A DNA stretch of 64,000 bases from a virus (Duplodnaviria > Caudoviricetes). Shown here in pieces: positions 122-63,635 of the stretch. The translations under genes and the position numbers were made by a program. The stretch covers positions 13,329-77,328 of IMG/VR virus record IMGVR_UViG_3300031992_000077; one strand, 5' to 3'. Below the pieces are notes generated by a model, which worked only from the letters and a program-made list of their open reading frames with translations, was not told the DNA's origin and searched no databases. The first letter of the stretch is position 1; each line of letters opens with the position of its first letter.

Positions 122-484
122 TTAATTTCTATTAAAAATTAATGCTTCATTAACAACTTCGGAGTCGTCATTCACATTTAATTTATTATTCCAAAATAAT
201 TTTTCTGCTATAGTAACATGGATTTCAGGATTATTAATGTGATTTAAAATCTAATCCCTTAAATTGTCATTTACAAACGGCAAATCCTATACATACGCGC
301 GCCCATCACCAATTTTTATTGCGGGCACAGCGATAACTTTTTCAACTCCATCTATTATTTTTTTAGTAGTCGCATAGTCATTATAAACTATAAGTTCACC
401 TTCTAATGGAATAAAACCTCTTGCGCTATTCCAATTAGCAGTTGTATCTCGCTTAAGTTTAATTCTAGCCTCTTTAACTCCCAT
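122..484 (-). CDS. Mtd N-terminal/hyaluronidase-N-like tail-fibre domain protein, 120 aa (2 TAG=Gln)
   Basis: Track ORF 287..484 continues through TAG: ...KIGDGRAYV(Q)DLPFVNDNLRD(Q)ILNHINNPEIHVT...NRN-TAA; contains the LKRDTxANW...GE...KIGDG pattern. Confidence 0.7.
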
Positions 485-496
485 ATAAACACCACC

Positions 497-820
497 TTAA
501 TATATTGTAGTGGTACTTGTACCGCAATCTAATATTAAATTCTCAAATTCATCATCAACATATTCTTTTTTTGCATAATCTGTACCATCTAATAAATCTT
601 CTACTTTTACAGTAGATAAAAGTTCTAACATTTGCTCACTAGTAATACCAAAATATTCTAGTTCCAACCAATGCCTAACTCCATCGCCTATTTTCAAACC
701 ATATACATCATATGCAAATCCAGGTTCTCCTAAAGCTAAAACTGGATTAACTTCATTCCATTCTGCTTCAGTAGCGCGGCGCAGTTTAAATACTGTCTTT
801 AAGACTTTTTTCGTAACCAT
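497..820 (-). CDS. Mtd N-terminal-like domain protein
   Basis: LRRATEAEWNEVNPVLALGEPGFAYDVYGLKIGDG pattern; start moved to ATG 820 behind a GGCGGTG RBS. Confidence 0.7.
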   Translation of the reverse strand: MVTKKVLKTVFKLRRATEAEWNEVNPVLALGEPGFAYDVYGLKIGDGVRHWLELEYFGITSEQMLELLSTVKVEDLLDGTDYAKKEYVDDEFENLILDCGTSTTTIY

Positions 821-974
821 ATACATCACCGCCATCAAAAATAATTATTAAATCTAAATCAATATCAGCCTCACTATTTATCGCATGAAAATCGCCCTTA
901 AAATTTACTTCTTCACTACTAGATTTAAAACTAGTTTTGAAATAACTATCTATAGTTTTCATTCTGCTTTTCAT
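786..974 (-). CDS. Small hypothetical virion-associated protein
   Basis: GGTGAG RBS; start overlaps the upstream TAA; ends IIFDGGDVYG, like neighbouring small tail-module proteins. Confidence 0.5.
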   Translation of the reverse strand: MKSRMKTIDSYFKTSFKSSSEEVNFKGDFHAINSEADIDLDLIIIFDGGDVYGYEKSLKDSI

Positions 975-1306
975 TAAATCTCACCATCCAGTAAAACATC
1001 ACCGAGCCTATCTTTCATTACATCGCTTGCTAAACACTGTCCATTTGTTAATTTAACTCGAATCTAAACTAAAATAAGAGAATCGCGCTATCTATCAAGC
1101 CAGCTATATTTTTCAAAAGACAAAGTATCTTCTTGCGAAAGCTATAAAGTGATTGTTTCTTCATCGGGCTAAAAAGTTACATCTGATAATTCTTTAGTAA
1201 AACAAACTTTTCCTTTCTAAAAATAAGTAATTTTTAAAACGCTTACTTCATTTTGGTCAAAAGGAAAATAAAATATATGTTTCGGAGTTGTGCCTCTGTA
1301 AGTCAT
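974..1306 (-). CDS. Conserved phage protein, 110 aa (RGTTP...TYxQ...VQIR type; 5 TAG=Gln), absent from the ORF track
   Basis: AAGGAG RBS; MTYRGTTPKHIFYFPFDQNEVSVLKITYF(Q)KGK...LILV(Q)IRVKLTNGQCLASDVMKDRLGDVLLDGEI-TAA; open only if TAG is sense. Confidence 0.75.
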
Positions 1307-1328
1307 ATTCTTTACTCCTTATATCTTC

Positions 1329-1472
1329 TTAAATAATCTAATACTCACCATCATACACTGGTGGTATTATATCTTTTGGAATAGTAATAATTCCTTTAAG
1401 TATTTCATCATCCGCGGATAATTTTCCAATTAAACTCTCAACCGCAGATAACTTTCCAATTAATTTTTCCAT
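1329..1472 (-). CDS. Small protein with duplicated LIGKLSA motif, 47 aa (1 TAG)
   Basis: GAGG RBS; MEKLIGKLSAVESLIGKLSADDEILKG...PPVYDGEY(Q)II-TAA. Confidence 0.55.
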
Positions 1473-1473
1473 C

Positions 1474-2035: not shown

Positions 2036-3163
2036 ATGAAAGGTTATGTTGATGGTTTTGACTGGTATAACGCAGAAGCCATGAAATACTGGAGTATCCC
2101 TTCGTCTTATAGCGCAGAAAAAGGAAAAACTGAAATTAAAAATGCTATCTTTAGCGGACGTTATTATGGGGCACTTAAAGTAGACGGATATTATCAACGT
2201 CTTATTAAGGATGAAGACGGTAACTGTTTTATGGTTGCGCGCTCAAAAAATGTAAAAGGTGAACCAACTGATAAATACGACTGGGTTCCGCAGCTTCATA
2301 AATTTATGGATAGTTTACCTAATGGAACCGTTTTACTTAGTGAATGTTATTTACGTGATAATGAAGGTTCACAAAAAATAACTAGTCTACTGGGATGTCT
2401 TAAAGATAAATGTATAGAGCGGCAAAAGAAAGACCAGTGGCTTAGCTTTTATATTTTTGATATTTGTGCTTATAACGGTAAAAATTTAATTAATACTCCT
2501 TTTAAAGAAAGAATAGATATTTTAATAGACCTCTCATTTAAATATAAAACCGCGCCACTTAATAGTGTATGTTCTTGTATTACTTGGGCTGAATATTTTT
2601 ATGGAGAATCTTTATGGAACGAATTACAGAATTACCTAGCTAGCGGGCGAGAAGGTGTAGTAATTACACGAGAAGATTGTCCTATTTATTTTAAGCGCAC
2701 CCCAGCGCACATAACAATTAAAGTCAAAAAAGAATTACGAGAAAGCCTAGACTGCTTCTTTACAGGGCGCGCGACGCCTCCGACCAGAATATACAGTGGT
2801 ATTAGCCTGCCCAGTTGGGAATATTGGGAAGACCCGATTACAAAAGAAAAACTTAAGGGTAATTATTATAGAGAATATATGAACGGCGCGCCGATTGAGC
2901 CAGTTACTAAGTCTTATTTTAATGGAATGGCCGGCAGCCTAGAAATAGGAGTTCTTCGAGATGGAAAAGTATATCCTATTGGTTATCTTAGCGGTCTTAG
3001 TGACGAAATTAAAAGTAACTATAAAGAATATACTGGAAAGTGTTTAGAAGTTGGGGCAATGCAATTTACAGAAGGGAATAATGCATTAAGACACGCGAAA
3101 ATGATTAGACTTCGTCCTGATCTTAATGTAGAAGATTGTACTTGGGAGAAACTTGGATTGTGA
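2036..3163 (+). CDS. lig: ATP-dependent DNA ligase (no TAG)
   Basis: Motif I ALKVDG, YIFDI, EGVV, C-terminal OB-fold ...LRHAKMIRLRPD. Confidence 0.9.
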   Translation: MKGYVDGFDWYNAEAMKYWSIPSSYSAEKGKTEIKNAIFSGRYYGALKVDGYYQRLIKDEDGNCFMVARSKNVKGEPTDKYDWVPQLHKFMDSLPNGTVLLSECYLRDNEGSQKITSLLGCLKDKCIERQKKDQWLSFYIFDICAYNGKNLINTPFKERIDILIDLSFKYKTAPLNSVCSCITWAEYFYGESLWNELQNYLASGREGVVITREDCPIYFKRTPAHITIKVKKELRESLDCFFTGRATPPTRIYSGISLPSWEYWEDPITKEKLKGNYYREYMNGAPIEPVTKSYFNGMAGSLEIGVLRDGKVYPIGYLSGLSDEIKSNYKEYTGKCLEVGAMQFTEGNNALRHAKMIRLRPDLNVEDCTWEKLGL

Positions 3164-4159: not shown

Positions 4160-5233
4160 ATGGAATATATTATTTATTGTATTCTTGGAGTTTTACTATT
4201 ATTTTTTATTGTTCTCTTTTTTAGACAGCAAAAATAGAATAAATATTTATTAGAAGAAAATAAAAAAATAGAAGAAAATAAATTAGAAGAATTAAATTAG
4301 AAATATAATAAAAGAAAGGAGTTCCTCGAAGAAGATTATAATAAAAAATAGGAGTATCTTCAAGATTAGTATAAAAAAAGAGAAAATCAATTATATCAAG
4401 ATTTCTATCAAGCGCAATAGAATTATAATGAAATAACTGAAAATTTAAATTAGAATTTTAAAAGATATAAAGAGTCCTAGTATAAATTAATACAAGAAGA
4501 TTTAGAAGAATATAGTAAAAATGAAAAATTTAAAAAATAGATTGAAATAGAAAAAAATACTTAGGAACTTTATGAACAATATATAAAAAAACAAAAGCTA
4601 CTTGAAGAAGAATTTCAATCTAAAAAAGCAGAAATAGAATTTGAAATAAAAGAAACTTATGATGATGCCGCAGAAGCTGCGTTAGAATACTGCGATATAC
4701 TTGAAACTTTAGATGATTTTCGCAGACGGCGCGAGGTCGTAAATTCATAGGTATTGCGTGAAAAACAAATACAAGAAGAAAAAGATTTTTATCGTATTTG
4801 TCTTAGTTAGAATGATATAGAAGACCTATAGATTATAAAAGATATAGAACATAAATTTAATAATAAAGAAGTTCTTCATAAAGCGGCTTTTGACTGTTAT
4901 GTACGACGGCCGCTATCTGAGATGGAAAAACGAGTCTTAGGTAATAAAAAACCAAGTGGAATTTATATTATAACCTATATTCCTACTGGAGAAATATATA
5001 TAGGTCGTTCAACTGATATAGCAAATCGTTGGACAGAGCATGTAAAAAGTGCGTTTAATCTTGGTACTATCGCGCATAGCTCTCTCCATACAAAGATGGA
5101 AGAAAAAGGAATTTGGAATTTTACTTTTTAGATTTTAGAAGAAGTTTCAAAAGAAAAATTAAATGAAAGAGAGAAATATTGGATTAATTTATATGGCGCG
5201 ACAACGCTAATGAATTAGAAATAGGGTGGATAA
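4160..5233 (+). CDS. Membrane-anchored coiled-coil protein with C-terminal GIY-YIG nuclease domain, 357 aa (many TAG)
   Basis: AGGAG RBS; N-terminal TM helix MEYIIYCILGVLLLFFIVLFF; long E/K/Q-rich coil; SGIYIIT...IYIGRS...RWTEH; ends LMN(Q)K(Q)GG-TAA. Confidence 0.75.
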
Positions 5234-6286
5234 ATGAATTTAAGTAAAAAATAGAAAGAAATAGTTGAATCACCATATCCAAAAATAGTTGTTAATGCTG
5301 CAGCAGCTAGCGGAAAAACAGCTCTTATAGTAGAGCGAGTTAAATTTATGCTCTCACGCGGTTATATGCCAGAACGTATAGTTGTTATTACTTTTACTAC
5401 AGCCGCGGCAGATGAGATGAGAAAGAGAATTGGTTATGTTGATGGCTTATTTATTGGAACTATTCATGCTTATGCACTTTATCTTTTAAGTGTATATGGT
5501 TTAAATGAAAAGGCATTATAGTATATAAATGAAGAAAAATTTGATAGTCTTTTTGCTATGGTAAAAAGACATAGAAAATGCATTAAACAAGTAGATTATC
5601 TTATGGTAGATGAAGCTCAAGACTGTTCAGAGAATGAATGGGAATTTTTTGCGTTAATAGACCCTGCTGGGTTTTTCTATTGCGGTGACACAAAACAATG
5701 CATTTATGAATGGCGAGATGCAAGACCAGCTGATTTTTTAGAAATAGCGTCTTATGAAGAAGTACATACATATTCTCTTGATGAAAATTATCGGAATGGA
5801 TACTCCATTCTTAACTTTGCAAAAGATATTATAACTCGTACTAAATCTCATATGTATGATGACTCAATACCAATGCGTCATACCTCTGGAAAGGTCTAGT
5901 GGGTTGAATTTAACTTAGGTAATATAGCTAAATTAATTAAAAATAGTAAGGAACCTTATGGTAGCTGGTTCGTACTAGCGCGCACCAATGATTAGATAGA
6001 AAGTATATAGTATATCCTAGATTCATATGGAGTCCCAAATATTACCTTTAAACGTGGCGGGAAAAGCTTTGATGAATTAGACGCACTCACTAAAGAAGAT
6101 AAAGTAAAAGTCTTAACTATTCACACAGCGAAGGGACTTGAAGCGGATAATGTGGTCGTTATTGGGGCTAGACTATGGGGTGATGAGGAAATAAGACTAG
6201 CTTACGTAGCGGCAACTCGTGCGAGAGAAAATTTATATTGGGTATATAACAAAAAGAAAAAAGCTAATATAGAAAGTTGGGAATAA
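5234..6286 (+). CDS. UvrD/Rep-like SF1 helicase, compact, 350 aa (5 TAG)
   Basis: LSKK(Q) Q-motif, AAAASGKT Walker A, TFT, VDEAQD, GDTKQCIY, ENYR, LARTND(Q), TIHTAKGLE, YVAATRA. Confidence 0.9.
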
Positions 6287-6811: not shown

Positions 6812-7558
6812 ATGAGTAAATTAAAAAATGAAATTGGAAATACATATGGGTATTTAACAGTTATAGGGCGCGCGCCGAATAATAAAGATGGTCGCGCAAT
6901 GTGGAAATGTAGATGTAAATGTGGGAATGAAATTATAGTTTCTGGGAAACATTTACGTTCTGGTAATACTAAATCTTGCGGCTGTTATTAGAAAGAACGT
7001 GCGATTGAATCAAATCTTATTAGGGGCGGAGATTTAACTGGAAAAAGATTTGGTAAATTAGTAGTTTTATGTGAAGATGGTTTTATAACTGGTTCAAATG
7101 GAAAAAGACGTAGATTATGGAAATGTCAATGTGATTGTGGGAATATTTGTTCTATTCAACACCAATATTTAAATTATGGCGATACTACTTCTTGTGGTTG
7201 TATTAATTCAGTAGGAAATATGACAATTACAAGATTATTAAATAAATCTAATCATAAATATAAAGCAGAATATTCTTTTAAAGATTTTATTTGTAATACC
7301 AAACCATATCAATTCGATTTTGCTCTTTTAGATAATGACGATAATTTGTTAGGACTAATAGAGTATCAAGGAGATATTCATTTTGTATATAAAGATATTG
7401 GTTGGAATACTAAAGAATCTTTTGAAGAAAGAGTAAAACGAGATAAAGAAAAATTTAATTATTGTAAAGAACATAATATAAAATTATTTTATATTACATA
7501 TAAAGATGATATAGAAGAAAAATTATAGGAGATATTAAATGAGTTATACAGCAGATGA
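6812..7558 (+). CDS. Free-standing homing-endonuclease-like protein: two CxCxCG...SCGC repeats plus C-terminal PD-(D/E)XK domain (2 TAG)
   Basis: WKCRCKCG...TKSCGC and WKCQCDCG...TTSCGC repeats; FDFALL...LIEYQGDIH...KRDKEK; reads through TAG 7526 to TGA 7556-7558, overlapping the gyrB start. Confidence 0.75.
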
Positions 7559-9389
7559 TATAAAATCATTATCTTTTAGAGAAGGTGTAAGAACTCGTAT
7601 TCAAATGTATCTTGGTAGCGCTGATAATGAAGGTGCCTATCAAGCTTTTAAAGAAATTATAAATAATAGTACTGACGAAGCGCTTTGCGGTTATGGTAAT
7701 CAAATTGATATTTCAGTAGATGAAGAAAACAATACTATTGAAGTTCAAGACTACGGGCGTGGTGTTCCTTTTTTAGTAAAAGAAGATGGTACTAATGTTC
7801 TAGTAGATGTATACACAAAAGCCCACACCGGCGGTAAATTTGATGACCACGCATATAAAAATGTTGGAGGTCTTAATGGTGTTGGTGGAAGTTGCGTATG
7901 TTTAAGTTCTCTTGACTTTATGGTAGAGAGCTGTCGTGATGGTAAGATGGCGCGCGCTATGTTCTTTAAAGGAGAGCTAGTTAGTTATAATGAGTTTGAT
8001 ACTAAACATGCTAATGGTACTCTTGTTAAATTTACACCAGACCCCGAAGTTTTTAAAGATGAAAAGATTCAATATGATTATGAGAGAATTTGTAATGATA
8101 TAAAGAATATTTGTTATCTTTATAGCGGAATTACATTTAATGTATATAATCTTAAAACAGGCAAGAAAAATACATATTCCGCGCGCAATGGTATTAAAGA
8201 CTTTATCAAAGATAATTTGAGTACACCGCTTCATAAAACAATTCAATATGCTACTGCCACTGATGGTGAAGATAAAATTGAAATTGCTTTTCAATGGGGT
8301 GCAAAGCGCGAGACTTCTTATGTATTTGTTAACGGCTTGCTATGTCCTGAAGGAGGCAGTCCCATAACGGGAGCAAAAACAGCTATTACGCGTACATTCA
8401 ACTCCCTATCAAAACAAGACTTTGATGGTGATGCAATTCGTGGAAATTTATTCTATGTAATTAATTGTTCTGTTGCACATCCGTCTTTTGCAAATCAAAC
8501 AAAATCAAAAATCAATAATGCTAATCTGCGTACACTTGCTTCTAATGCTTTTAGCGATGCGCTGAAGTCAATGAAGATTAAACTTCCACAAGAGTTTGAT
8601 ACAATCGTAGAATTATTGAAAAAAATTGCAAAGGCAGAAGCTGCCGCAGAGAAGGCGCGCCAGCAAGTTCTTAATGCTTCAAAAGAAATTGAAAAGAATC
8701 AAAAGAAAAAAGTTTTTGCTTCTGATAAATTGAAAGATGCGGAGTTTCTTGGGCAGAACTCGACCCTTCTTATTGTTGAAGGTAATAGTGCTATGGGTGG
8801 TATGGCTCAGGCGCGTGATTACAAGAAGTATGGTATCCTGGCAATTAGGGGTAAGATTATTAATTGCTTGTCAAATCCCGAAGAAAAGATTTTTGAGAAC
8901 GAAGAAATTAAACTTCTTTTGAGTGCGATGAATATCGTGCCGGGGAAATATAATAGTTCAAAACTTCGTTACGGCCGCCTTGCAATCTGTACCGATGCAG
9001 ATAGCGATGGATACCATATTGGACTTTTAATTATGGCTGCACTTACCTATCTTGCGCCGCAGTTTATTAAAGAAGGACGCTTGTGCTGGTTGCGCTCACC
9101 ACTTTATATTGTCAATAATGGTAAGCAAGAAAGCTACTATTTCGATGATACAGAATTTAATGCTGTGCGCGGCAAGATTAAAGGTGAAGTAACGCGCGCA
9201 AAAGGTCTTGGTGAATTGCCGGCTGAAACCGCGCGAGCATCTATGTTTACTGAACAGTATCAACGTATGGAAGCTATGGAATATAGTGATGAAGCGTTAG
9301 GTTTATTGTATGATTTAATGGGCGAAGACGTAAAACTAAGAAAAGAATTTATTTTTAATAATATTGATTTTTCGGAGATAACGGAGTAA
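7539..9389 (+). CDS. gyrB: DNA gyrase/type IIA topoisomerase subunit B (no TAG)
   Basis: EIINNSTDE, DYGRGVP, HTGGKF, GGLNGVG, TOPRIM VEGNSA, IRGKIIN, DADSDG, KGLGE. Confidence 0.95.
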   Translation: MSYTADDIKSLSFREGVRTRIQMYLGSADNEGAYQAFKEIINNSTDEALCGYGNQIDISVDEENNTIEVQDYGRGVPFLVKEDGTNVLVDVYTKAHTGGKFDDHAYKNVGGLNGVGGSCVCLSSLDFMVESCRDGKMARAMFFKGELVSYNEFDTKHANGTLVKFTPDPEVFKDEKIQYDYERICNDIKNICYLYSGITFNVYNLKTGKKNTYSARNGIKDFIKDNLSTPLHKTIQYATATDGEDKIEIAFQWGAKRETSYVFVNGLLCPEGGSPITGAKTAITRTFNSLSKQDFDGDAIRGNLFYVINCSVAHPSFANQTKSKINNANLRTLASNAFSDALKSMKIKLPQEFDTIVELLKKIAKAEAAAEKARQQVLNASKEIEKNQKKKVFASDKLKDAEFLGQNSTLLIVEGNSAMGGMAQARDYKKYGILAIRGKIINCLSNPEEKIFENEEIKLLLSAMNIVPGKYNSSKLRYGRLAICTDADSDGYHIGLLIMAALTYLAPQFIKEGRLCWLRSPLYIVNNGKQESYYFDDTEFNAVRGKIKGEVTRAKGLGELPAETARASMFTEQYQRMEAMEYSDEALGLLYDLMGEDVKLRKEFIFNNIDFSEITE

Positions 9390-9390
9390 T

Positions 9391-9636
9391 ATGGAATATC
9401 CTAAATGTGGTTCATATAATGATTATAATAGAATAAGCTGTAAAAAATGTGGGTATAAAAGAGAAAAGATAGTAAAACTTAATAAAGGAGATATTTTTAT
9501 AATAGATGTCCATACTTTTTTAAGAGAAGAAATGTATAAAAATCCTATATTTAAAGTTTTAACAAGAGAAGAAATAATAAAAGAAAATATGTATATTCCT
9601 AATGAATATGGCTGGTTAGTAATAAAAATGGAGTAA
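9391..9636 (+). CDS. Hypothetical protein (N-terminal Cys cluster)
   Basis: GGAG RBS; 81 aa; PKCGS...CKKCG. Confidence 0.55.
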   Translation: MEYPKCGSYNDYNRISCKKCGYKREKIVKLNKGDIFIIDVHTFLREEMYKNPIFKVLTREEIIKENMYIPNEYGWLVIKME

Positions 9637-9640
9637 AATT

Positions 9641-9847
9641 ATGTTTAAAGAAGATTATGAAGATTATAATATCCATGATATTGAAATGGAGATAGCTCGT
9701 GAACCTCTTAAAATAATAGAACCATCATATGAATATTTATTAGGTTTTTATGATGGTATTTTTTGTGAGCAAGGCCAATTTGAACTAAGTTATGATTATT
9801 TAAAAGGATTTTATGAAGGCGTGAAAGTGAGGAAAAGTAATAGATGA
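9641..9847 (+). CDS. Hypothetical protein with internal YEYLLGFYDG/YDYLKGFYEG repeat
   Basis: GGAG RBS; 68 aa. Confidence 0.6.
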   Translation: MFKEDYEDYNIHDIEMEIAREPLKIIEPSYEYLLGFYDGIFCEQGQFELSYDYLKGFYEGVKVRKSNR

Positions 9848-10320
9848 ATGAAGATATAGTTTATTTTTCTTTTAATAATTGGTTTAGCGGTAGAGATTAT
9901 CCTATTGGAGATAAATACGAAGAATTAATAAATTCTCATAAATTTAGTAACGAAAATTGGGTTAAAGAAAATAAACTTGTTGTAGTAACTGGCAATATTG
10001 ATATGTCTGTTAATTGGTGTATTGCTGCACCAAGGAAATGGGTAGAAGAAAATTTGCCAGAACTTTTAACTAATAAGGAATATAATTATGATATTATTAC
10101 TTATTATAAAGGTAAGGAAACAGTAACCACATATACCAAAAAATATAGTGATTTTGTATACCCTGGAACTCCTTGGGAATGTAAATATGGTATGCCTTTT
10201 AAAGAATATGATGAAGAAGCAGCAGGTGTGTATTATATAGAAGAGGACGAGTGGGAATGGAATGATGATGAAGAGGACGAAGAAGAATGGAATGATGATG
10301 AAGAGGACGAAGAAGAATGA
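9844..10320 (+). CDS. Hypothetical protein with acidic tail
   Basis: 158 aa; ATG overlaps the previous stop. Confidence 0.7.
   Translation: MNEDIVYFSFNNWFSGRDYPIGDKYEELINSHKFSNENWVKENKLVVVTGNIDMSVNWCIAAPRKWVEENLPELLTNKEYNYDIITYYKGKETVTTYTKKYSDFVYPGTPWECKYGMPFKEYDEEAAGVYYIEEDEWEWNDDEEDEEEWNDDEEDEEE
10256..10320 (+). repeat. 30-bp tandem duplication encoding WNDDEEDEEE twice
   Basis: AATGGAATGATGATGAAGAGGACGAAGAAG repeated. Confidence 0.85.
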
Positions 10321-29391: not shown

Positions 29392-29413
29392 ATAAATAGT
29401 GAGGAGGAATACT

Positions 29414-32227: not shown

Positions 32228-32228
32228 T

Positions 32229-41386: not shown

Positions 41387-41398
41387 AATTTATCTCCT

Positions 41399-49668: not shown

Positions 49669-49684
49669 AACTATTTACCTCGTA

Positions 49685-50742: not shown

Positions 50743-53700
50743 TTATCGTAGACGGCTTAAAGTATTCACATTTCGATACGCGCCATCTTGCGCAATACGA
50801 GCTTTAATGCGGTCAATCGCCTTATCTACATCGTAATCGCTACTCATTTGGTCTACTTTAACTTCAATATTATAATAATTATTTCCACCATTAAGCGCAA
50901 AATTCCCGTTCTTTCGCACGTCTGCAAGAATATCTTTTAACTCAATGAAATTCTAAGTATCTCGTGCATTAAGAATAAGTTCAGGATTAGAACGAGTTCC
51001 ATCTAACCAAGCAGGACCAGTAAAATCGGCAAGGCCACCAGTTCCATAGACTTTATAACGCTTTAATATATCTAATGGCCCACTTTCATTTAAAACAATA
51101 TTGTTTTTAGAACCACCCGCGCTAACAAAAGAAGAAGAACTTTTCGGAGTCACCTTGGTTTTATTATTAATAGGTGCAGAACCTTCATAATTCTATAGGC
51201 GAGAATCTGGAGCAAAAATCTTTACATTCGTATCAAATTTATTACGTATATATCCACAACGACTACATTTTTCTTGTAACTAATCTTTATTAATTGGATT
51301 AGTTATATCTTTAAATCTATGCCTTTGTTTTCCATTTTTCCCCTGAGATATAGGATAACAATATTCATCATCTAATGTTACCCATCTTTCTTCAGTCTTA
51401 CCTTCTTCAGTTACTATACTAGTCCCCTAGTCCACCTAAGTCTTGGAAGGAGTCATTGGCTTCTAAGTGCTGGTCGCTGGCTTTACCGCGGCCTTTGTTT
51501 CACCCTTATCTTCAAAGGTTCTATAAGCTCCATGATAGTCCTAAAAAACATCTTTATATGTTGTAGTACTACCATCTGGATTTTTAACTATTACATTACC
51601 TTCTTTATCTACTGTACCGCTTAAAGTTTGACCGCTTGCAGTTGTAAAACTAATTTTACTACCTTCTTTAGTCCCAATATCTTCAAGCTACCTCTACATT
51701 TCAAGATAAGCAACGCCCTAAGCTACTTGGTCTTCTAATTCTGAAAGCCAATTCATTTGCCCCTCTTGAGACAAACTGGTCCAAGCTTCGCCGCCCTTCA
51801 ATAATGCTTCTAATTCAGAGAACTTAACAAGCGCTCCAACCGCATCAGTACCTTCACTAATATACCTATAGACTTCATTCCAAAATTCTCCAGACTTTTC
51901 TTGCCAATCAAGTGAGCGCTGCATAAGTTCAATCTACTGCTAACGCTATTCTTGTGCTTCATCATTTTGACGCTGAAGTTCACTAATCTTTTGATCAATT
52001 AAAGTATCAGTATAATTTTGGCGTGCATCAGCTAGCTCTTCCTAAAGCTTCGCAATTTCTAACTAATTTGCATTAGAAGAATCCTACTAAAGATAAGCTA
52101 ATCGTTTTTCTTTATCAGTTAATTCTTCTTCTGTCTTCGCATTATCTCTCTACTAGCGTTGCATAGATAAAGTTTCTGACATTGAATCAAATAATTTCTA
52201 ATTCGTATCATTTATAGCTTTATCTACGTCCTAAAGTTCATCTATCTTATCTTGAATTTGTTTAATTAATGCGTCACGAACTCGTTCTTCTAAAGTATTA
52301 TACTAATCTTTTCCTCGTTCTAATATGTCTTGAACAGCACTTTCTATATCTTCAAGCTGTTCAATCATATCATCATATTTAGATTGAAAATCTTCGAGCT
52401 TAGAAAGATAATCTTTTACCTCTGAACCCTCATCCTTATCCGTTATTCCATTAACTAAATCCCAATCAATTTCAATGGTTAAATCTTCATTATTCCACCA
52501 GGCATATTTCTAAAGTTCTTGATTTTCTTCTACTAAATCTATAATTTGTTGCTTACGTTTTTCTGCAAGGTCGGCAGTTATCTCTTGACGCTCGCGCAAA
52601 AGAGTAAGTTGACGGGTAAGATTATCATAGATTTCTTTACCAGTTTTACCTTCGGTTTTAAGAAGCTAGTTATAATCTGTTTCTAAGAGATTACGAAGAC
52701 GAAGAAGTTCATTAATATCCTCGACCATATTATAATATTTATCGAGGTCCATTTTAAATTCATCATCTTTTTTCTTATCTCCGCTTCCAGAACCTTTTCC
52801 CTTATCTTTATCATTAGCATCAGTCCAAATAGTACCATCATAATAAGAAGGAATTATTTTTCCTCCTTTCGCAAGCGAAGGAGTAACCCCACGTTTAATT
52901 ATATCTTCTGTCTCATCTGCAGGAAAAACCTAATCACCTTGAACTAAATTAGCAAATTCTGGTCCATGCTTACCCACAAGATAAGCATAACCACCATTTT
53001 TATTCCATACAAGCTCAGGCCCTTCTTCTCCAGTAAGTGCAACGCCAGGCTTTATACGACGCGCGCCGGATGCATAAGATACAATACCACCTAATGCGCC
53101 GTTAGGTCTACTCCAATCATTATTTGGATATTCTCTACCAGCTTTATTACTTCCTGAAGTGTTACCTCCAGTTTTATAGACTTCAGTAATTGTAACTGTT
53201 TTACTAGCATCTGTAGATAAACTAGCTTGTAACTGACCCGCATATTTAATTGCGTCGTTTATGGCACTATAATCAAGAGTAACTTTATTTTCAGTCTTTA
53301 TAGTTTCTATTAATTCATTAGCAGCTTTTTTCGCATCTTCTAAATCTCCAACTAAAGCTGCTGCATTTAAATTATCGGCATCACTCTATAATTTCTAAGA
53401 GAACTGTTCATATTCATCTAAATTTTTTACTGTTACATATACAGTTTCTTCTGCAAAACTTGCTACACCATTTTCTTCTTTAAGAACTTTATATTTTACT
53501 GGTAAAGTTATTCCTTCTGTGCCACCATTTTCTTGTATAAACTAATTAATCCATTCGTCTGCGGTGACTGCACCAGCCCTAACCTCTGGTATTACTTCTT
53601 TAACCTTAACTTTTAAAGAATCAATACTAAATTCTTCTCCGCCACCCCATTCTTTTAAAATAGTTTCCGCGGTTTTGCCATCATTCTATTTAAATACATT

Positions 53701-56700
53701 TTCGAAAGATTCTGATAAATTTCTTTTAACAGTTTCAGCTAGTTCATCAAAAGTATAAGTAGTTTTATATTTTTCATTATAATACTATAAAACCTACTCA
53801 GGAGTAATACCCAATCCATCTGCTATAGTCTATATATCTGCCTAAGTTGGTTTTTCTTCACCAAAAGCATCTCTATAAATCTCAACTATAGAACGTACAT
53901 CATTTACAGCTAGTTCTTTGACTACACCATAATCATGGTTTGCCATATTCTAGAACTGCATATTAAGAAAATCTTCAGTAAATTCTGGCAACCCCTAACT
54001 TTTAGCATAGGCGTTTGCCCTTTGTCGCATTAGTTCTCTATACTATACACTAGTAAGTCCTTCTGCACCCATATTAGTCATGACACCAGTTTTTTCATCT
54101 AAACTGGCTCCCATGACATCAGCCCAAAATCTACCGCCACCCCATTCTTGTAAAGTTTTTAATATCTCAATACCTTTTTCCCAATCTTGTAAATCAGTTG
54201 GAGTGGTTGTAAATATAGCTTTCCAATAATTTTGAAGTTGTGGATTACCTAATTCTCTTGAACTTATTAAAGCCTCCATTGATTGAATGGCTGAATCAAT
54301 AAAATCAAAAGATTCTCCCCAATCTTCACCAGCGTCAAAATTCTTAATAAAATTCTATGCTTTACTGACTATATCAGTCAAACTTTCAAAATTATTAAAT
54401 ACTTCAAGAACATTATCATTTAAATCAGTAATTGCTATATTTCCTTTACTAAAAGCTTGAATAGCTTTAGCTAAGCCATTAGCAGACATTGTCCCTGTAT
54501 CTAATAATGCCGCGAGAGACTTACTCTCTTTAGCTAATTCTTGAATATTATATGGAGTAATTTTTCCGTTCTCTTCGATAAATTTGTCAACCTATTCATT
54601 TAAATCGCTAAATTCACCAGAAGCTAAATAGAACTATACTAAATTCTATTTAGAAAAAATACCTTCTTTTTCACCAGCGTCCTTTAACGTCTTAGCTAAC
54701 TCTGCAACTTCTTTTTTAGTATTCTAAGTTCCTTCCTAAATAGCCTAAAAAGTTAATATAATATTATCTGATAAAGAACCAATAAAATCATCTAAATCCG
54801 CACTAATACCTCCATCTTGACTCATCGCATCTATCATTGCAGATTCAACTTGATTTCTAAAATTAGCTCCATAATCGCCTAAAGTTTCACCAATTTTAAT
54901 GACTTTTTTCTACTAAACAATTTCTAATTTACTAAATTTTTGTAATGCAGCGGTATCTCTCATGCCAGAAGACATTAAAGATTTAAGAGCATTTTTAGTA
55001 TAATCTTTTCTAGTTTTTTCAATCTATTCGATATATCCATTTAATATTTTAGCTAAGCCCTCTCCATCAGTATCAAACATTTGCATAAGAGCTTTCGCAA
55101 TATCTTCATTTTTTAAAAATTCACTTATCTCTGTTCCAATATTTTCTAAACTATCTTCATATGTGCCAGAAATAATCTATAATAATTTTAAACCCTATTT
55201 TTCTTTACTTATATCTGATACTTTATCAATTAATTCAGAATATGTTTCCTTTATAATTTCTGCCGAGGCAATAGCAGAAGCTAATTCATCTTTATCCTCA
55301 GTTTCAGCCTCAACGCCATATAAATCGCTATATTTTCTTTTAAGCTCTTCCCTTGTCGCTTCACCGCTCCACCAATTAGCTCTTCGTTGCCGACGAGTAC
55401 TTTTAAAGAAAGCGTCAGAATTAAAGGTTTCGGCCATTGCTGAAGCTATAGCGTCAGACATTTCATCAGAAAGGTTACTTGTATCAAGCATTCGCGCGAA
55501 ACCGGCTTTTGCATGTGCTTTTTCTGCAGCCCGTTCCTGATTTGCTAAATTCTAATATCTGGTATATCTAGCAACCTCTTCTGGAGTCATATCCCTTACA
55601 TTGGCCGCTTGTGTACCGTCATTTTCATAAATGAGCTTGTTCTCTAAATCTATATAAGGCGACTAATATTTACTTTCATAAATTTTTGCTTGCTTTCCCG
55701 CGGCCATAGCTTTTGCTAATTCTGCGCTCTAAGCAGTTTTATTAGCAGCATCCGTAGTACTTTTAACTAAAGCATCTATTGAAGCTTCGTCTAGTGTTAA
55801 AACCAATTGCCCATTTTCAAATGTAGAAGATAAATATTGTGCATATTTAGTATTCTATTGTACTAAATCAGTAAGGTAGTCATTTCTTTCCTAAATAGCC
55901 TTATTACGTTCTTGGACAGTTTCTGCCTACTGCACCGCAGCAGTTTTTTCACCATATTGCTCTGATACCTATTTAGTCTACTGTTTTGCCTATTCCGCTG
56001 CGGTAGCAACTTTATCTAGCTATTCAGAATATTTTTTAGCCTATTTTAACTAACCTTCTAAAGAAAATTCAGACCAAGCGGCATATGCAGCAACTACAAG
56101 TCCAGCCGCCGCAGCAACTCCGCCAAGAGCAGTAGCTAAAGCTGCAGCTCCTTCAGCCATACCTTTTCCAACAAGACCTTTTACTAACCCAGTTTTAGCT
56201 ATTTTACTACCAAGCCCAGTTTTTACGAATTTATTACCAAACGCACCGAATAAAGTCTTGGGCACACCACCAATTTGCTGCTAAGCTAAAGACTTCCAAT
56301 CTTCACCTCTAGCCCAAGCTTCTTTCACACCAGGTAAATTCCAAGCAACTGTATCTTCTGGTAAAGGCGCGGCATTAGCCTCTTTAAAAGCCTGTATTTT
56401 CTTTTTTAAATTCCCATTAAAAATATCAGATAAAAGACTAGTTCTAGGCATAATAGTAGTCTTATTTTCTTTTCTAGCTATATCTTCAGCAGAACCCGCG
56501 ACTACATCTCCATTTAAATCAATACCACTAGTTAATCCACCTTTAATAATAGATTGCCCAATTCTTGAACCTTTTAGAATAGTAGTAACCGCTTTATCAA
56601 TAAAACCGCCATTACCAAAACTTCTCTTTAAAGCACCAAAAGTTTTAATAGCAACTGCCCATTTTAAGAAAGAACCTGCGCCGCTACCGAGCGCACCAGT

Positions 56701-58653
56701 AAGTTTATTAACTATCTATAATAATTTTGTAAGTGCATCAACAGCACCCTTTAAGACCGCGTTATTCGCAAGACCCATCGCAAATTCATCCCACGCATTC
56801 TTTAAACGCGCGAGTTTTGATTGCATAGAATCCTAAGTCTTTTCAAATTGCTTCTCTGCAGCACCATTACTATTATACGCCGCACTAACTAATTCTTGTG
56901 TACGCGCATAATCTGCCATCAATGCAATAAAACGAGACTGTTGACGAGAGCCCGCAGCCTATGTTGCGATATATCTCTATTGAATATTAGTAAGTGAATC
57001 CCACTTAGAGGCTAATTCAATAAATATATCATCTAATCCAACTTCACCAAGGAAATATTTGTTTAAATCAATTCCAGCAGTACGAAGCGCGGCAGATACT
57101 TTATTAACATCAATTACTTGCCCTTCTTCATCCTAACCTTTTAATTCTTCTTTATCATAAAGTTTCTTAACTTCAGAAAATCTAGCTACAACTGTCTTTA
57201 ACGCAGTACCGGCAGTTTCAGCAGATTCTCTTGTGCTTTCAATAATCTATGCCAAGAACGCCGCAGTAGTTTCAAACTCCATATTAGCGTTATGCGCCAA
57301 TGAAGCTACCTTGGTCATAGCAGTAGAAATTTCGTCTACATTAGAAGCAGACATAGCCGCTAACTGAGAATACACATCATCTACTCGTTGCGCCTATGCT
57401 GTATTTAATTCCATATTAAAACCACGCAAAGCGTTAGTCATACGGTCAGTAGCATCTGCCGCGTCAAGACCCGCAATACGCGCCATCTTCAATGTCTCAG
57501 TTGAAAGCGCCGCTGCCTATTCTGTATTTAAGCCCTACTGATAATACAGTGTCGCGCTCTCATAAGCTTCTTTGGTTGTTACACCTAATTGATTCGCGCG
57601 TTTTGTGTATTCTGGTAGCTACTTCCACATATCTTTAATAGTATAATTAGTAACTACCGCAGTTTCAGTCATAGCTTTATCAAGTTCTTTTATTGTACTA
57701 AAAGAACTACGAATTGCACGTTTAACTAAATTAATAGCATTTGCAAGACCAAGAAAATATTGAATACGACTTTTTACTTGGTCTAATTCAGAACCAAATT
57801 GACCAGCACTTATGGTTAAATCTTTAAGAGGTTTTTCAGTATTTCTAGTTTCTTGAGCCAATTGACTCATAGTATTAGTACAATTACTTAATTGATTATT
57901 AAGTTCTTGCGCTGCCTATGTAGAAATCTAAAGCCCTTCACTCTATTTAAAATCTATTTTTCCCTATATATTCTAAGCTTCTTTTTCGGCTTCTTTCATT
58001 ATATTAATAATAGCCTAATACTAATTGATAATTTCTTTGGCAGTTTGATTTCCTTTTCCTTCGCCAGAAGCCAATCCAGTATAACTTTTTTTAGCTTTTT
58101 CTATTAAATCTATAGCTCTCTAAATATCTTTTACATCTGTAGCACCCTTAAAAATATCTAAAGCATCAGTAATTTTCCCTTTAGACTTTTCAGTCTTAAG
58201 TTTACTCATTACCTATTCTATCTTTTTCAGCCCGTCCGGTGTAATATTATTTAACTATTTCTATAAATCTTCTATTTCTTTTTTAATGCCTTCTAATTTC
58301 TATTTTACACTATCATCTATTTTTATCCAATTATTTAAATCTATCTAATCACCAAACTAGCTTCTGATTTTCTATACAATCTAATCATACTTTTCCATCC
58401 CAGCAATTACTTTATCAAAAGATTTATTAATTGCTGTGGCATCAGCTTTATTTTTTATACCCTAACGACTTTTTGCCTAAAAATCATTTAAAGCTTTATC
58501 TAATTCATTAAAAGCATTATTAAAACTACTACGTAAATTATCTGGTAATTTCAAATTATTTAAAGTAGTTTGGATATTTTTAATTTTTGCCTAGGCATCC
58601 CCAGCATCAAATAAAGCTTTAATATTAACGGTATAACTCGTACTGTTTCCCAT
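50743..58653 (-). CDS. Tape measure protein, about 2636 aa (very many TAG)
   Basis: TP901-type core ETAVVT...ATLYYQ(Q)GL...TLKMARIAGLDAADATDRMTNALRGF...TAGTALKTVVARF; GEEGPEL motif; six track fragments share one frame. Confidence 0.9.
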
Positions 58654-58712: not shown

Positions 58713-59501
58713 TTACATATCGCTATCTATATCATCGTTAAGGAAGTACATCTCTATAACTCTAGAATTCATTCGACTATCCTCAGGGATAATCTTTCCT
58801 TGAATTCTTCCCACCATGGGATTCGCTTTCTCTCCTAAACTCATAGATAAGTCAGACATTAACTTTAACTTTGGAATAATTATTATTCCCGTATGTGTTT
58901 GACCTGTTACGTCATCCTTAATCTTTGTTCTTCCTTCAAGTCGTAAATATCCTTTTATAAGACGCTAACCGATATTTACAACGCTTCCGCCATTTTCATA
59001 TTCATAATTATAATCTACTATTATATTTGTATATGGATAAATTACCTAATATTTGCCTTCTTCAATTTCTTCATAAGATAATTTTTCACCGTTATCCAAT
59101 TTATAAGCAAAAAATTTACCATAAGGCTTTTCTTTTAATTCAAAAATACCATTATCATTTGTTTCTAACTCTTCTCTTATTGGGACTATTATTTTTTCTT
59201 CAGGTGTAATATTAACTAATTTAGAATTACTCAAAAGTGCAAACTATGCTTTAGAAAAGATTCCTCTTTCCATTATAAAGTTTATTTCTTTTGTAGTTTC
59301 CCACCATACATGCGCGCGGTCATCAAAACCGCCGTGCGCGGTTACATAACTTTTAATTTCTTGAAAGTTTGAAATTTGTATATTATCAAAGAAACAAATA
59401 GTTTCTCCTTCTTCTATTTGTCTACCACCAATCTCTATAGGATAAGTAGCTTTTAGGCTTACATCGTATAATTCTTTAATCCCAAATTCATTTAAAGCCA
59501 T
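58713..59501 (-). CDS. Second tail-tube-like protein (paralogue of the major tail protein), 262 aa (TAG=Gln)
   Basis: GIKELYDV, TAHGG, GYLRLEG...IIIPKVKVMS mirror motifs of 59574-60446. Confidence 0.7.
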
Positions 59502-59523
59502 AACTCTATAACTCCTTAAAAAT

Positions 59524-59555
59524 AAAAGGTGGAAGAATTCCTTCCTCCACCTTTT
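59524..59555 (-). terminator. Intrinsic terminator after the major tail gene
   Basis: AAAAGGTGGA...TCCACCTTTT. Confidence 0.75.
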
Positions 59556-59573
59556 AAAATTAACCATTTACTA

Positions 59574-60446
59574 TTACTTTAAGTCATACTGTACGAGCTT
59601 CATCATATCGCCATCTTCAGGACGGAGAACGGTGAGATTCATGTTAAATACAGCGGGATCGCCCTCAGCTTCCAAAGTAATCGTATTCTCAGAGGTCATC
59701 TTGGCCTTCGGAATAATGAACTGGAAGAACTGATCGGAACCATCAACATCAGAACGAGCATAAGTATCGCCCTGAACGTAATAGGTACCTGGGAACGTAT
59801 CGCCAGAAATGATGATTTCGGACTTATCAGCAGGAACAGTATAGTCAATCAGAACTTTCTAACCACCCTTGCTAGCAATAGCAGTATTAATTGCCTCTAA
59901 TCCCATAGTGGCTGTATCAGAAGCACTTCCTAATACCGTACCATCTTCACCAGTAACTTTTCTTACATTTAAGCCCCTGGTAACTGCTGCGGAGAAGAGA
60001 ATCATATTCGCTCTCGCTGTAGTGGTTTCCTTCATATCAACCTTAACGCGCTCAGAACTACCAGTAGCAGAGTTATAAAGGTCAACCATAATATAATCAA
60101 TATAATCAGTAGCCGAGTCAATAACACGAGCCATAATTGTACGAGAAACCGTACCAGTAGATTTGGGAGTGGCAACGCCATTACCAAACATGATAGCCAT
60201 AGACTTGGCAGAGAACAAAGCGTCTTCAATAGAAACTGTGATTTCCTTGCCATAATCCCAGGTTACAAGCTTAGGATTACCCTTACCACCACGAGCATCT
60301 ACAGATTCAGCCGTCTGCTCAATGGTAGAAACTTTTAATGTATCAAGGTATAATACGGGGTCGCCCTAAGTACCATCAGGCTTAATTTTATAGAAAGTAA
60401 CATCTGCAACCTCTTTAATACCATAACGGTCTAAAATACTTGCCAT
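59574..60446 (-). CDS. Major tail tube protein, 290 aa (2 TAG)
   Basis: GGAGG RBS; GIKEVADV...DARGGKGNPKLVTWDYGKEI...FPGTYYVQG...FIIPKAK; biased codon usage; strong terminator downstream. Confidence 0.8.
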
Positions 60447-60463
60447 GTATAATAGCCTCCTAA

Positions 60464-61222
60464 TTATTTGTCGTTATTTTTATTCATCCAATACTATACT
60501 TTAATTTTTTTGCTATCCGCACCAGCGAGTAAACTTCGAATATCAATATCATATTTTTCTTTCTATTGATATTTCTCAACTAACTTTTTAGATGCCGCAT
60601 AGCTTATCTCTCCGATATTAAGTGGATTTAAACCAATACCCATACAACAAATTGAGATTAAAGTTTCTTCAAAAGTAATTCCAATTCCTTTTTTAGCTTT
60701 AACTCTATCTCTATAACGTGCCTTTGCCTTCATTTCTTTAATACGCGGATTCTCATTTGGATTAGGGGCATCTAGTTCTTTATCACCTAACGAACGCCGT
60801 ATCGCATTTTGAAATTCAAAAAAATTATCTTGATTAATAATTCTCAATTCATTCATCATATTTTCAATACTAGAAATCTTTAAAAATTCTGTTTCTAAAT
60901 TTCCAATAACAATACTGCCTGCCGCGTACTATAAACTAACTGGTTCGCGCAGATATAACTCAAAACTATCTAAAACTTTCTTCTCAAATTCTTTATTATA
61001 TTGTGAATTACCCATTATATATGTAAATGGGTCTGGTGGTTTAATAGATTTTCCTTCATCATTCACTTTATCAATAAAATAATCTTCTAATTCTTCCTAT
61101 GAAATAGTAAGAATATTAATTAATTGTTTTGTTTCTTCTCTTAAAACCTAATTGACTGTAGGCGGATAAATAGTACATAATTCTTTAAATTTTTGCGGTA
61201 TACATAAAAATGGCTCAATCAT
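60464..61222 (-). CDS. Tail assembly/chaperone-like protein, 252 aa (TAG=Gln)
   Basis: Single frame through TAGs; located between the neck and tail-tube genes. Confidence 0.55.
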
Positions 61223-61706
61223 AAGAAGTTAAGTAGAAATACTACTCATATGCACTAATTTCTTCTGTTAAGAAGTTCAATTCAAAATCTCCGCCCTATA
61301 ACTTACCTAATCCATTTATAGTCTTTCCATTCAAAGATTCCTATATTTCTCCTAAAATAGCAAACGGGCGCAACTACACATCTTTAATTATCCACTATGT
61401 AAGCGGTACAAACACTTCAATATTAATACTTACATCTTTAAATTCACTATTTTCATCATTCTCACGCCCGCGTGTAATACGCATAGTAACTATAGAATGA
61501 GAGGTTTCTTTTGGACCAACACGAGGCACTATTTTAACTAACTTTTCAAAAACTTCATTCTATATCTATTCATCTGTTAAATCCGGCTAACTTAATGGGT
61601 CTTTATCAGTATAATATAATAATTTAAGTAATTTCTAGTTCGCTAAAAGCCGTTTCATAATCTTTTGCGCGTTCTCACCTAAATCTCTACAATTCCTAAC
61701 TCCCAT
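61215..61706 (-). CDS. Neck/tail-terminator-like protein, 163 aa (TAG=Gln)
   Basis: LLAN(Q)KLLKLLYY...INIEVFVP...RPFAILGEI; GGTGAG RBS; position in the neck module. Confidence 0.6.
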
Positions 61707-62431
61707 TAACTCTCACCACCTTTATTCAACCAATAAAAGTCGTCCGGGTTATCTCCCTATTCTTGTTCTGGTTTGGGAGAATGGTCATATACATAAATTG
61801 GGTCAATACTTACAAATTCAACCCCAGGTGTAGACTATCTATCATAACCTGTAACTCTATACGCCTCTATTAATTCTCCCTCTCCAATCTCAAAATAGTC
61901 ATCTTTATGTAAATCTTTATTGAGTGGAATAACCATAAAACTAAGTTTTAAGTTTTCAGAATATATAGTATCCATACGACTACGAGAACGAATTTCATCT
62001 TTCAACATATTATCTTCTTGGCCATAAAAATAAGCCAAAGTTGAAAAAGTCTATTCTTCTCTCTACCACGTAATCGTATGAGTCATCTTTAACATAACAT
62101 AACGATTATACCCACTGGCTTTAATATTTTCAAGCCAGTAAACCATCCAAGGGATTAATTCTAAATCCTTATTCGGAAGATAAAGAATCGTTCCAGCAGG
62201 AATATTTAAACTAACTCTAGTTAATAGATAAGCACGAGTTTCAGTTTCATCCTATTTATATCTCTCTAAAAGTCCAGGACATTCTTCATCATCATACTCA
62301 AAGTCTATCCTATAAACGCTTTTCATTAATAAATGTTCAAACTATTTCTCACGCTGAGTCTAAATTCGGGACTAATAATTTAAACCATATCTATTTAACC
62401 TTTTCAAATATATATCTTCAAAATAACTCAT
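61706..62431 (-). CDS. Head-closure/neck-like protein, 241 aa (TAG=Gln)
   Basis: MSYFEDIYLKRLNRYG...AYRVTGYDR(Q)STPGV; position in the neck module. Confidence 0.6.
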
Positions 62432-62695
62432 TTACTTTGAAAGTAATCCCATACATTCAAATATGGTCTTACGAAAATACTCATAATCTAAATAACGCAG
62501 AGAATTAGTTTTATTTACTAGTTCTACCCAGTTAATACTGCGCTCTTCTTCTGGAAAACCATAAAGTTCAATAATAATAGAGTCAAGAAATTTTTCCCAA
62601 TCTCTACCTTTCTCTTTTTCACAAAGCAAACCAAAATACTTATTCTTCAACTTATTGAAATAAGCTTCTGTTAAAATTTCACTACTACTGCTCAT
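62432..62695 (-). CDS. Hypothetical neck-region protein
   Basis: 87 aa; abuts its neighbours. Confidence 0.65.
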   Translation of the reverse strand: MSSSSEILTEAYFNKLKNKYFGLLCEKEKGRDWEKFLDSIIIELYGFPEEERSINWVELVNKTNSLRYLDYEYFRKTIFECMGLLSK

Positions 62696-62697
62696 AT

Positions 62698-63123
62698 TTA
62701 CTCTCCCGCAAGAGAAGTAAAATCAAACGGTTTACCGTCATAAGACCTATAATACACTCTTTCTAGTTTAAGTGCATTATATTTCTCCGCTTCCAACATA
62801 GACTGAAATTTTGCTAATAAGTTTGCTTGTGAAAAATCTCGCTCTTCATAAAGCGGCTTTACGTTTTCCCAAGTAAGAATAGTCCTATTTAACCACTCAC
62901 ATTTCATATAAGTAGCTAATATCTGAATCTCTATGTTACTTAAATCTTCCTCAAAACCGTAGTCCCCACGGCTAAGAGAAGTGCGAGGGAATTTAAACCA
63001 AGGAATAGCGCCTTCTAAAAGCGCGCGCAAATCCTAATTCACTTCATCCTCGGTCCAAAAACCCCATTCATCATCCAATATCTTTGCCAAAAAGGCATCA
63101 TATACAGTTTGATAAGAGGTCAT
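62698..63123 (-). CDS. Head-tail adaptor-like protein, 141 aa (1 TAG)
   Basis: MTSYQTVYDAFLAKILDDEW...N(Q)DLRALLEGAIPWF...EIQILATYMKCEW...DFSQANLL; GGAGG RBS. Confidence 0.65.
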
Positions 63124-63137
63124 ATATTAAACCTCCA

Positions 63138-63635
63138 TTATTTCTTTTCGGCCTTTGCAGCCTCTTCATCCTTCTGGTTTTCTTCAAGAACCTTATAAAT
63201 ATTAATCATCGCGCGATCTTGAATATAGTTTTTCTTGTCAACACTAGGTGTCAATTTATTCTCAATCGCATACTGCGCCAACAGCACAATCTAATCATTA
63301 GATACCTTATCTAAGCCTTCCTTGAAATCATGGAACGGCATTACAGTAAGATACCTCTTCATCTGTGCCTCATTAAGAATAATAATATTTACCGGCTCTT
63401 CCGCATCTTCTGGCTCAAGACCATATTCTTTCTTAATTTCCATGTCTTCAGTATAAAGAATACCCTTCTCAAACATATTGCGCGAACCAGTATCATACAT
63501 CATCGTATCAAAAATATCATGCGATACACTAAATTTATCTCCCTTCTTCAACCATGTATGCGTAAAGTGAATATCAGGCAACGTAATACCGACACGAGCA
63601 TTAATAGTATTAACAATAACAACTTTTCCTTCCAT
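63138..63635 (-). CDS. Protein immediately downstream of the capsid gene, 165 aa (1 TAG)
   Basis: AAGGAG RBS; reads through ND(Q)IVLLAQYAIE to TAA. Confidence 0.65.

Follow-up and report, generated by a model that had tools for sequence, protein, structure and literature searches.

TAG as a sense codon, best explained as glutamine, in a siphovirus-like phage from the ruminant gut

The viral contig IMGVR_UViG_3300031992_000077 of the IMG/VR database is a linear record of 77,328 bp with a G+C content of 33%, from which we analysed a stretch of 64,000 nucleotides (bases 13,329–77,328; hereafter the window, the coordinates of which are used throughout) for the use of the codon TAG, which appears to be translated as glutamine (Gln; genetic code 15). 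The contig, whose completeness CheckV estimates at ~60% and whose near-complete collinear relatives measure ~120 kb, is a genome fragment of a siphovirus-like phage of about that size from the ruminant gut (sheep and cattle). The sequence of its tape measure gene was detected in sheep-gut sequencing runs and also, on small shares, in bovine and goat gut runs. The siphovirus-type lineage proposed in an initial annotation of the window fits the gene content, which includes a tape measure protein of 2,636 amino acids (aa), a Dit protein and a tail tube akin to those of the Lactococcus 949 group and of large Bacillus siphoviruses.

Gene identities were assigned from profile matches to Pfam and PHROGs, which bore out the names given in the initial annotation. 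The plus strand carries a set of replication genes that are nearly free of TAG, consisting of an ATP-dependent DNA ligase (2036..3163; no TAG; Pfam), GyrB (7539-9389; no TAG; Pfam) and GyrA (10405-12837; one TAG, at 10471; Pfam) with three small open reading frames (ORFs) without TAG between them (within 7539..12837), the DnaB helicase and primase (15888..18492; no TAG in either; Pfam/PHROG), and a DnaE-type DNA polymerase III alpha subunit of 1,323 aa (20294..24265; Pfam), which has 42 CAA/CAG codons and no TAG and is identical under the standard code. Reading TAG as sense also fuses a series of metabolic and repair genes on this strand: a GIY-YIG nuclease and a short UvrD-like helicase (4160..6286; 15 and five TAGs), HNH nucleases, a RecJ-like exonuclease (18489..20231; one TAG, at 19950; Pfam), which under code 11 would lose 92 aa of its OB domain at that TAG, NrdD and its activase NrdG (25727..28145; one TAG each, at 25832 and 27744; Pfam), serine hydroxymethyltransferase (SHMT; 28145..29377; seven TAGs; Pfam, 2e-143), a papain-family (C1) cysteine peptidase (29399..30247; five TAGs), a dUTPase-domain protein (31295..32227; one TAG, at 31877) and a RuvC-like Holliday-junction resolvase (ORF at 32079..32954; eight TAGs; PHROG, 6.6e-19). 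The fused metabolic and repair genes also include a ThyX-like one. The true start of the resolvase probably lies after 32227, and a 78-aa minus-strand ORF that overlaps it (32245-32481) is a spurious pick of the greedy ORF caller. The virion genes lie on the minus strand and comprise minor tail proteins and other tail/baseplate genes of 1,093, 1,032, 1,723 and 318 aa, the last being Dit (38105..50641; 18, 20, 44 and eight TAGs), the tape measure gene (50743..58653), which contains 90 in-frame TAGs and corresponds to an intact ORF of 2,600–2,700 aa in standard-code relatives, and two tail-tube paralogues (phrog_2729) together with head-proximal virion genes (58713..63635; 0–9 TAGs each).

Across positions 122..63635, on both strands, coding density and the ORF lists show that TAG is a sense codon in this phage. 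When coverage of the window was calculated from a greedy choice of non-overlapping ORFs with a minimum length of 60 aa, it rose from 0.537 under code 11 to 0.951 with TAG as sense, and the median ORF length rose from 99 to 238 aa. Re-calling genes with translation table 15, the check put forward in the initial annotation, thus gave a gain that is specific to TAG as against TGA, since reading TGA as sense left coverage practically where it was (0.551). Reading TAA as sense gave a coverage of 0.81, but through many short overlapping ORFs that represent an artefact of the AT-rich sequence. The 68 genes called over the whole 77-kb contig with TAG as sense contain 390 in-frame TAG codons, next to 387 CAA and 126 CAG, and all of these tightly packed genes end in TAA (55) or TGA (13), as was claimed for the full-length genes into which the fragments fuse. 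As this calling treats TAG as sense, TAG may occasionally serve as a terminator as well. The frames are interrupted by TAG alone, and in-frame TAA or TGA was never seen. The in-frame TAGs are spread evenly along the genes, and the base 3' of TAG resembles the one that follows CAA, unlike the A/T-rich context after true stops; no special +4 context of TAG was detected, and in late genes there was no difference from CAA/CAG (p = 0.19). The summed content of TAG, CAA and CAG stays at 3.5–3.9 per 100 codons in six recoded genomes, while the share of TAG differs among them.

Contigs from DNA and RNA libraries match the window with zero differences, and because of this an assembly error is excluded, as is RNA editing at those TAG sites that are covered by RNA-library contigs. 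In the Logan assembly of one sheep-gut run, possibly the source sample, the matching DNA contigs cover 118 in-frame TAGs, and those from two metatranscriptome libraries of another study cover 73. As RNA libraries may contain DNA, a match to them is no proof of transcription. In contigs from two sheep metatranscriptome libraries, the tail-tube and head-proximal genes (59171-63635) reach a word depth of ~30–120, compared with ~0–10 for the tape measure and tail genes, a contrast that is suggestive of transcription, with the limit that contig depth cannot rank expression.

For the identity of the amino acid, a DnaE search of IMG/VR yielded 65 related loci, to which the TAG-masked proteins of the window were aligned by BLAST. 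The alignment cells opposite TAG held CAA/CAG in 38% of cases, the next most frequent entries being Lys (8%), Arg (7%) and a TAG in the relative as well (5.5%), and the cells opposite the phage's own CAA/CAG codons held Gln in 48%. Glutamine was the majority residue in 32 of 87 TAG columns and occupied six of the eight strongly conserved ones. When the TAG columns were scored by likelihood against empirical substitution profiles, one for each amino acid, Gln came out 67 nats ahead of the runner-up if every column was given the same weight. Circularity was controlled for with three whole relatives (G006, G008 and G009) that all use the standard code: their code-11 coverage is about the same as their code-15 coverage, their tape measure ORFs are intact at 2,600–2,700 aa, TAG ends ~7–11% of their genes and tRNA-CUA is absent. 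Against these three genomes, 198 TAG columns could be compared, in which Gln accounted for 29% of cells, as against 40.5% for the own CAA/CAG codons, and Gln was the best residue by 260 nats per cell. The tape measure is among the genes whose TAG columns are best fitted by Gln. The initial annotation had regarded TAG columns aligning mostly to other residues as a sign against its claim; Gln turned out to be the plurality (29–38%) and not the majority, and the phage's own CAA/CAG codons behave alike (40–48%). By these alignments, glutamine is by far the best-fitting residue for TAG, and every test that was run supports the reassignment originally claimed, both against the 65 loci and against the standard-code genomes.

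Most of the individual conserved sites that had been singled out at the outset lead to the same residue. The TAG at 28448 corresponds to the invariant Gln of the SHMT motif NVQPHSG in alignments with PDB entries, the one at 5252 to the Q-motif Gln of UvrD and the one at 29546 to the oxyanion-hole Gln of papain-family peptidases, six residues N-terminal of the catalytic Cys, the latter two as judged from solved structures. The other helicase TAG that had been named, in RTND(TAG) at 5993, falls outside the stretch over which PDB entries could be aligned. The dUTPase TAG at 31877 is Gln in the two best-matching PDB dUTPases, and that of NrdG at 27744 is Gln in 41 of 42 relatives, the NrdG query itself having found no match in PDB. 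The assignment at the RecJ site (19950) held in part: Gln occupies the position in 53 of the 59 relatives from phages, but the residue in PDB 8y30, the sole solved RecJ that could be aligned, is Thr.

The distribution of TAG over the genome is strongly uneven. Over the minus-strand blocks, made up largely of virion and tail genes, TAG provides a fraction of 0.543 of the glutamine codons, versus 0.042 in the replisome genes and NrdDG (Fisher p = 2.6e-40). Among five recoded relatives with 46–98% identity, the ligase, GyrB, DnaB and DnaE contain no or one TAG in every genome that has the gene, and GyrA and primase follow the same near-TAG-free pattern, a conservation which argues that TAG avoidance in the replisome genes is under selection. 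The TAG-rich genes of the plus strand are the mobile nucleases, the resolvase, SHMT, the peptidase and a 357-aa protein without an assigned function. Three homing-type nucleases, two HNH (3136-3534 with four TAGs; 6812-7558 with two) and the GIY-YIG enzyme (4160-5233 with 15), lie in the otherwise TAG-poor early block, in which the GIY-YIG gene shows the densest TAG use. The sole TAG of GyrA (10471, codon 23 of the long ORF) stands directly 5' of a GTG at 10474 (10471-10476), and no TAG occurs in the gyrA orthologues of those recoded relatives that carry the gene; translation may begin downstream of this TAG, in which case GyrA would be wholly readable under the standard code.

How the codon could be decoded was examined in relatives. 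Five of them, examined whole (G001–G005), are all TAG-recoded, with coverages of 0.58–0.67 under code 11 and 0.88–0.94 under code 15, and carry arrays of 9–37 tRNA genes. A tRNA with the anticodon CUA is present in three of the five (G002, G003 and G005) and also on the contig of a further related locus, L026. Of these, G002 is 95% complete, has a DnaE that is 80% identical and shares a clade of 100% support with the window, and G005, which has direct terminal repeats, is 100% complete. The CUA tRNAs of the three genomes share with the phages' own tRNA-Gln a U1, an unpaired 1:72 position and G73, and the acceptor stem of the CUA tRNA in G002 is identical to that of the 72-nt tRNA-Sup-CTA of phage phAss-1, which was assigned to Gln by its authors (PMC10607447). 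The contig is collinear with G001 and G002, beginning ~7.3 kb into the former, whose tRNA array lies at 150-2010, and ending ~39 kb before the end of the latter, and therefore the tRNA array and the head module fall into the missing part of the genome. In the mechanism that we propose, TAG would be decoded by a phage-encoded amber-suppressor tRNA with the anticodon CUA and a tRNA-Gln-like acceptor end (U1, unpaired 1:72 and the G73 discriminator), which would be located in a large array in that missing part, as in the relatives, would be charged by host enzymes and would compete with release factor 1 (RF1). The replisome genes would be made under the standard code of the host directly after infection, and the TAG-rich virion genes would become translatable once the suppressor tRNA accumulates, so that recoding could serve as a late-gene timer, a model put forward by Borges et al. 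(10.1101/2021.08.26.457843) that is suggested here by the codon distribution.

The CUA tRNA of G005 (L107:19240-19327, corresponding to G005:119240-119327; Infernal, 52.5 bits) measures 88 nt, 18 of which form a long variable arm, and phAss-1 has a Sup-CTA (L162:12445-12532) that resembles it, is of equal length and shares its anticodon arm. Such an arm could be taken as a sign that TAG stands for Ser, Leu or Tyr, an interpretation that was rejected as Gln is the best fit in G005 too; a class-II-shaped tRNA thus appears to serve a Gln codon in this genome. A full-length ROOL RNA (RF03087, 257.6 bits) adjoins the G005 tRNA array (L107:4593-5187, corresponding to G005:104593-105187), and none was found in the window; no Rfam family reached its gathering score in the contig. 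When searched for the missing array region, a metagenome-assembled genome (MAG) of the Erysipelotrichaceae that includes a contig with a 96%-identical DnaE gave matches of 30–83 bases, which leave the region uncovered, and an exact-pattern scan of IMG/VR for the anticodon arm of the G002 suppressor found three contigs only, none of them tied to this genome.

Taken as a whole, we assign a probability of about 0.88 to the reading that the window derives from a ~120-kb siphovirus-like phage of the ruminant gut in which TAG is translated as glutamine by way of the proposed suppressor tRNA. Several results weigh against it. No tRNA was detected in the 77-kb contig with ARAGORN or with Infernal (E<=1), the RF-1/RF-2 domain (PF00472) was found neither in the contig nor in G001–G005, and the catalytic domain of Glu/Gln-tRNA synthetases (PF00749) was found neither in the contig nor in G001, G002, G003 and G005; the initial annotation was right to state that the window lacks a tRNA-CUA and a release factor, and this holds for the whole contig, where a Glu/Gln-tRNA synthetase is likewise missing. 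The closest large relative, G001, shows no CUA tRNA in its partial array, and the timing model is drawn solely from codon distribution. Should the host be one of the Bacillota that make Gln-tRNA through glutamyl-tRNA synthetase and GatCAB, the route by which the suppressor would be charged is a particular gap. One conserved TAG column aligns to Thr in eight of eight relatives, and another, at 25051-25053 (codon 264 of the gene at 24262-25335), to Arg in 39 of 42; the TAG column five codons upstream of the latter is Gln in 40 of 40, and the TAG at 25051-25053 represents either a genuine Arg-to-Gln change or a local oddity.

That TAG is a true stop, in a decayed or mis-assembled phage or in transcripts edited before translation, is extremely unlikely: the fragmented ORF track under code 11 is all that speaks for it, against which stand protein similarity that continues across the TAGs in 87–198 columns, frames that are broken by TAG and never by TAA or TGA, identical contigs from DNA and RNA libraries with no base change at the 73 RNA-covered TAGs, and a pattern that is common to the whole clade. 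We regard it as highly improbable that TAG is sense but stands for another residue, be it Glu, Lys, Thr, pyrrolysine, or Ser, Leu or Tyr inserted by a long-arm suppressor. Such a meaning could account for the mere plurality of Gln at TAG columns, with Glu, Lys and Thr next, for the label 'Pyl' that ARAGORN by default gives to the CUA tRNAs and for the long variable arm of the G005 tRNA, which is typical of class II tRNAs; it is at odds with the lead of Gln in both likelihood comparisons, with the same spread of residues at the phage's own CAA/CAG codons, with the TAGs that fall on invariant functional Gln sites, with the constant summed content of the three codons across genomes and with the best fit of Gln in G005 as well.

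Another alternative is a host that itself reads TAG as Gln, which the phage would simply match without any switch of its own. The contig, which holds no suppressor tRNA, release factor or synthetase, would be compatible with such a host, but the avoidance of TAG in replisome genes, conserved over deep divergence, would then be pointless, related phages of like samples use the standard code with TAG ending ~7–11% of their genes, and recoded relatives bring their own tRNA-CUA. We know of no bacterium in which TAG is read as Gln. Standard-code hosts are also predicted by Borges et al. for the recoded phages of their study, and we consider this explanation very improbable. The last alternative, which is unlikely but deserves more weight, keeps TAG as Gln and dispenses with a suppressor tRNA of the phage itself, with decoding by a modified host tRNA, near-cognate readthrough or a non-canonical RNA that escapes detection. 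It draws on the absence of tRNA genes from 77 kb, on the parts of the G001 and G004 arrays that are present and show no CUA tRNA, and on the study of Borges et al., in which just 40% of the genomes recoded at TAG had a detected TAG suppressor. The contig is, however, a ~60% fragment that starts past the position of the G001 array, the G001 and G004 arrays are truncated where the contigs end, a CUA tRNA is present in each of the two recoded relatives with a completeness of 95% or more, and efficient decoding is needed for ~390 TAGs, of which a single gene contains 90. A suppressor tRNA encoded in the missing part of the phage genome, about 45 kb in length, is the explanation that we prefer.

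Reassignment of TAG to Gln is known from other gut phages, as was stated in the initial annotation for Lak and crAss-like phages, and for the latter peptides prove Gln at TAG (PMC9523058). Both groups share the reassignment and the late-gene bias with the window phage, and they differ from it as unrelated lineages with Bacteroidota hosts and podovirus-like or megaphage genomes, Lak phages in addition encoding release factor 2 (RF2). More similar are the TAG-recoded gut clades of Borges et al. with Firmicutes hosts, e.g., Agate, in which TAG best fits Gln, structural genes are recoded and recoding of replication genes is variable or missing. These clades mix codes 11, 15 and 4, show the late-gene bias, include tRNA-CUA in part of the genomes and standard-code kin, and comprise phages of ~100–145 kb from animal and cattle guts. 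Agate differs in that two of its TAG-recoded phages have RF2, which was found in none of the five window relatives. A phage is assigned to one of the named clades by its placement in a tree of TerL, at a bootstrap support of at least 95%, and the contig does not include TerL.

The phage phAss-1 (proposed genus Phassvirus; OQ749652; PMC10607447; 'Caudoviricetes code 15 clade' at NCBI) is likewise a siphovirus with a large genome, in which a tape measure gene of ~3,000 aa is accompanied by dozens of tRNAs and a gene set that includes DnaE, gyrase, RecJ, NrdD/NrdG and dUTPase, and it reads TAG as Gln without a dedicated synthetase. Two Sup-CTA tRNAs of phAss-1 resemble those of the window relatives, with the acceptor stem and G73 of the 72-nt form being the same as in G002 and the anticodon arm and long variable arm of the 88-nt form shared with G005. 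In contrast to the window phage, to which it is very distantly related, it is from the human gut, and only 17 of the ~70 genes of the window contig match its first 100 kb, at 25–41% aa identity (DnaE 33%), a level of similarity and synteny that by sequence comparison places the window phage outside the genus Phassvirus. Standard-code siphoviruses of Bacillota (the Lactococcus 949 group, Bacillus phages PJN02, FADO and Thrax5, and SPbeta for DnaE) are alike in the tail tube (~35–37% identical), DnaE (~37%) and genome size class, and differ by the lack of recoding and by the low sequence identity.

The Bacillota host named in the initial annotation is plausible and weakly supported. The nearest cultured homologues are all standard-code phages of Bacillota, and the contig with the closest DnaE (96%) was binned with an Erysipelotrichaceae MAG; among the binned contigs of the family (L143–L149), others were placed with MAGs of Bacilli, Acutalibacteraceae, Oscillospiraceae, Bacteroidales and even Methanobrevibacter. 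Such mixed bins probably contain much binning noise but provide host leads. In the DnaE tree, for most leaves of which the code status was derived from the replication region only, recoded and TAG-free members are interleaved, and parsimony requires seven changes, at least five of which are forced by well-supported branches. One relative with a DnaE ~68% identical to that of the window (L024, IMGVR_UViG_3300031992_000100) gains coding density from 0.88 to 0.96 when TGA is read as sense, and 139 of the 250 cells aligned to its in-frame TGAs hold Trp; this member of the same family probably uses code 4 (TGA-to-Trp), and such a member matches the mix of codes in the clades of Borges et al. The family comprises standard-code, TAG-recoded and candidate TGA-recoded members at 53–96% DnaE identity. 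A wider reading, which we regard as doubtful though possible, is that a single DnaE-defined family of ruminant-gut siphoviruses of ~100–145 kb underwent at least five switches between the standard code and TAG = Gln and one to TGA = Trp, by means of two portable types of suppressor tRNA shared with phAss-1 (the Gln-like class I tRNA and the 88-nt tRNA with a long variable arm) that would act as mobile code-switch cassettes in the tRNA arrays.

The phage is a clear new example of a published type of recoding, in which both the phenomenon and its late-gene bias had already been described. Annotation under code 11 makes the contig and its relatives look fragmented and low in coding density, and deprives protein databases and host-range analyses of half of what the genome encodes, the tape measure and every tail gene among it; therefore, rumen viromes should be re-called with translation table 15. 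Since tRNA-CUA occurs in three of the five recoded relatives of which whole contigs were examined and in none of the three standard-code ones, the members of the family form a compact natural series in which to study the origin of codon reassignment and its use in the timing of late genes.

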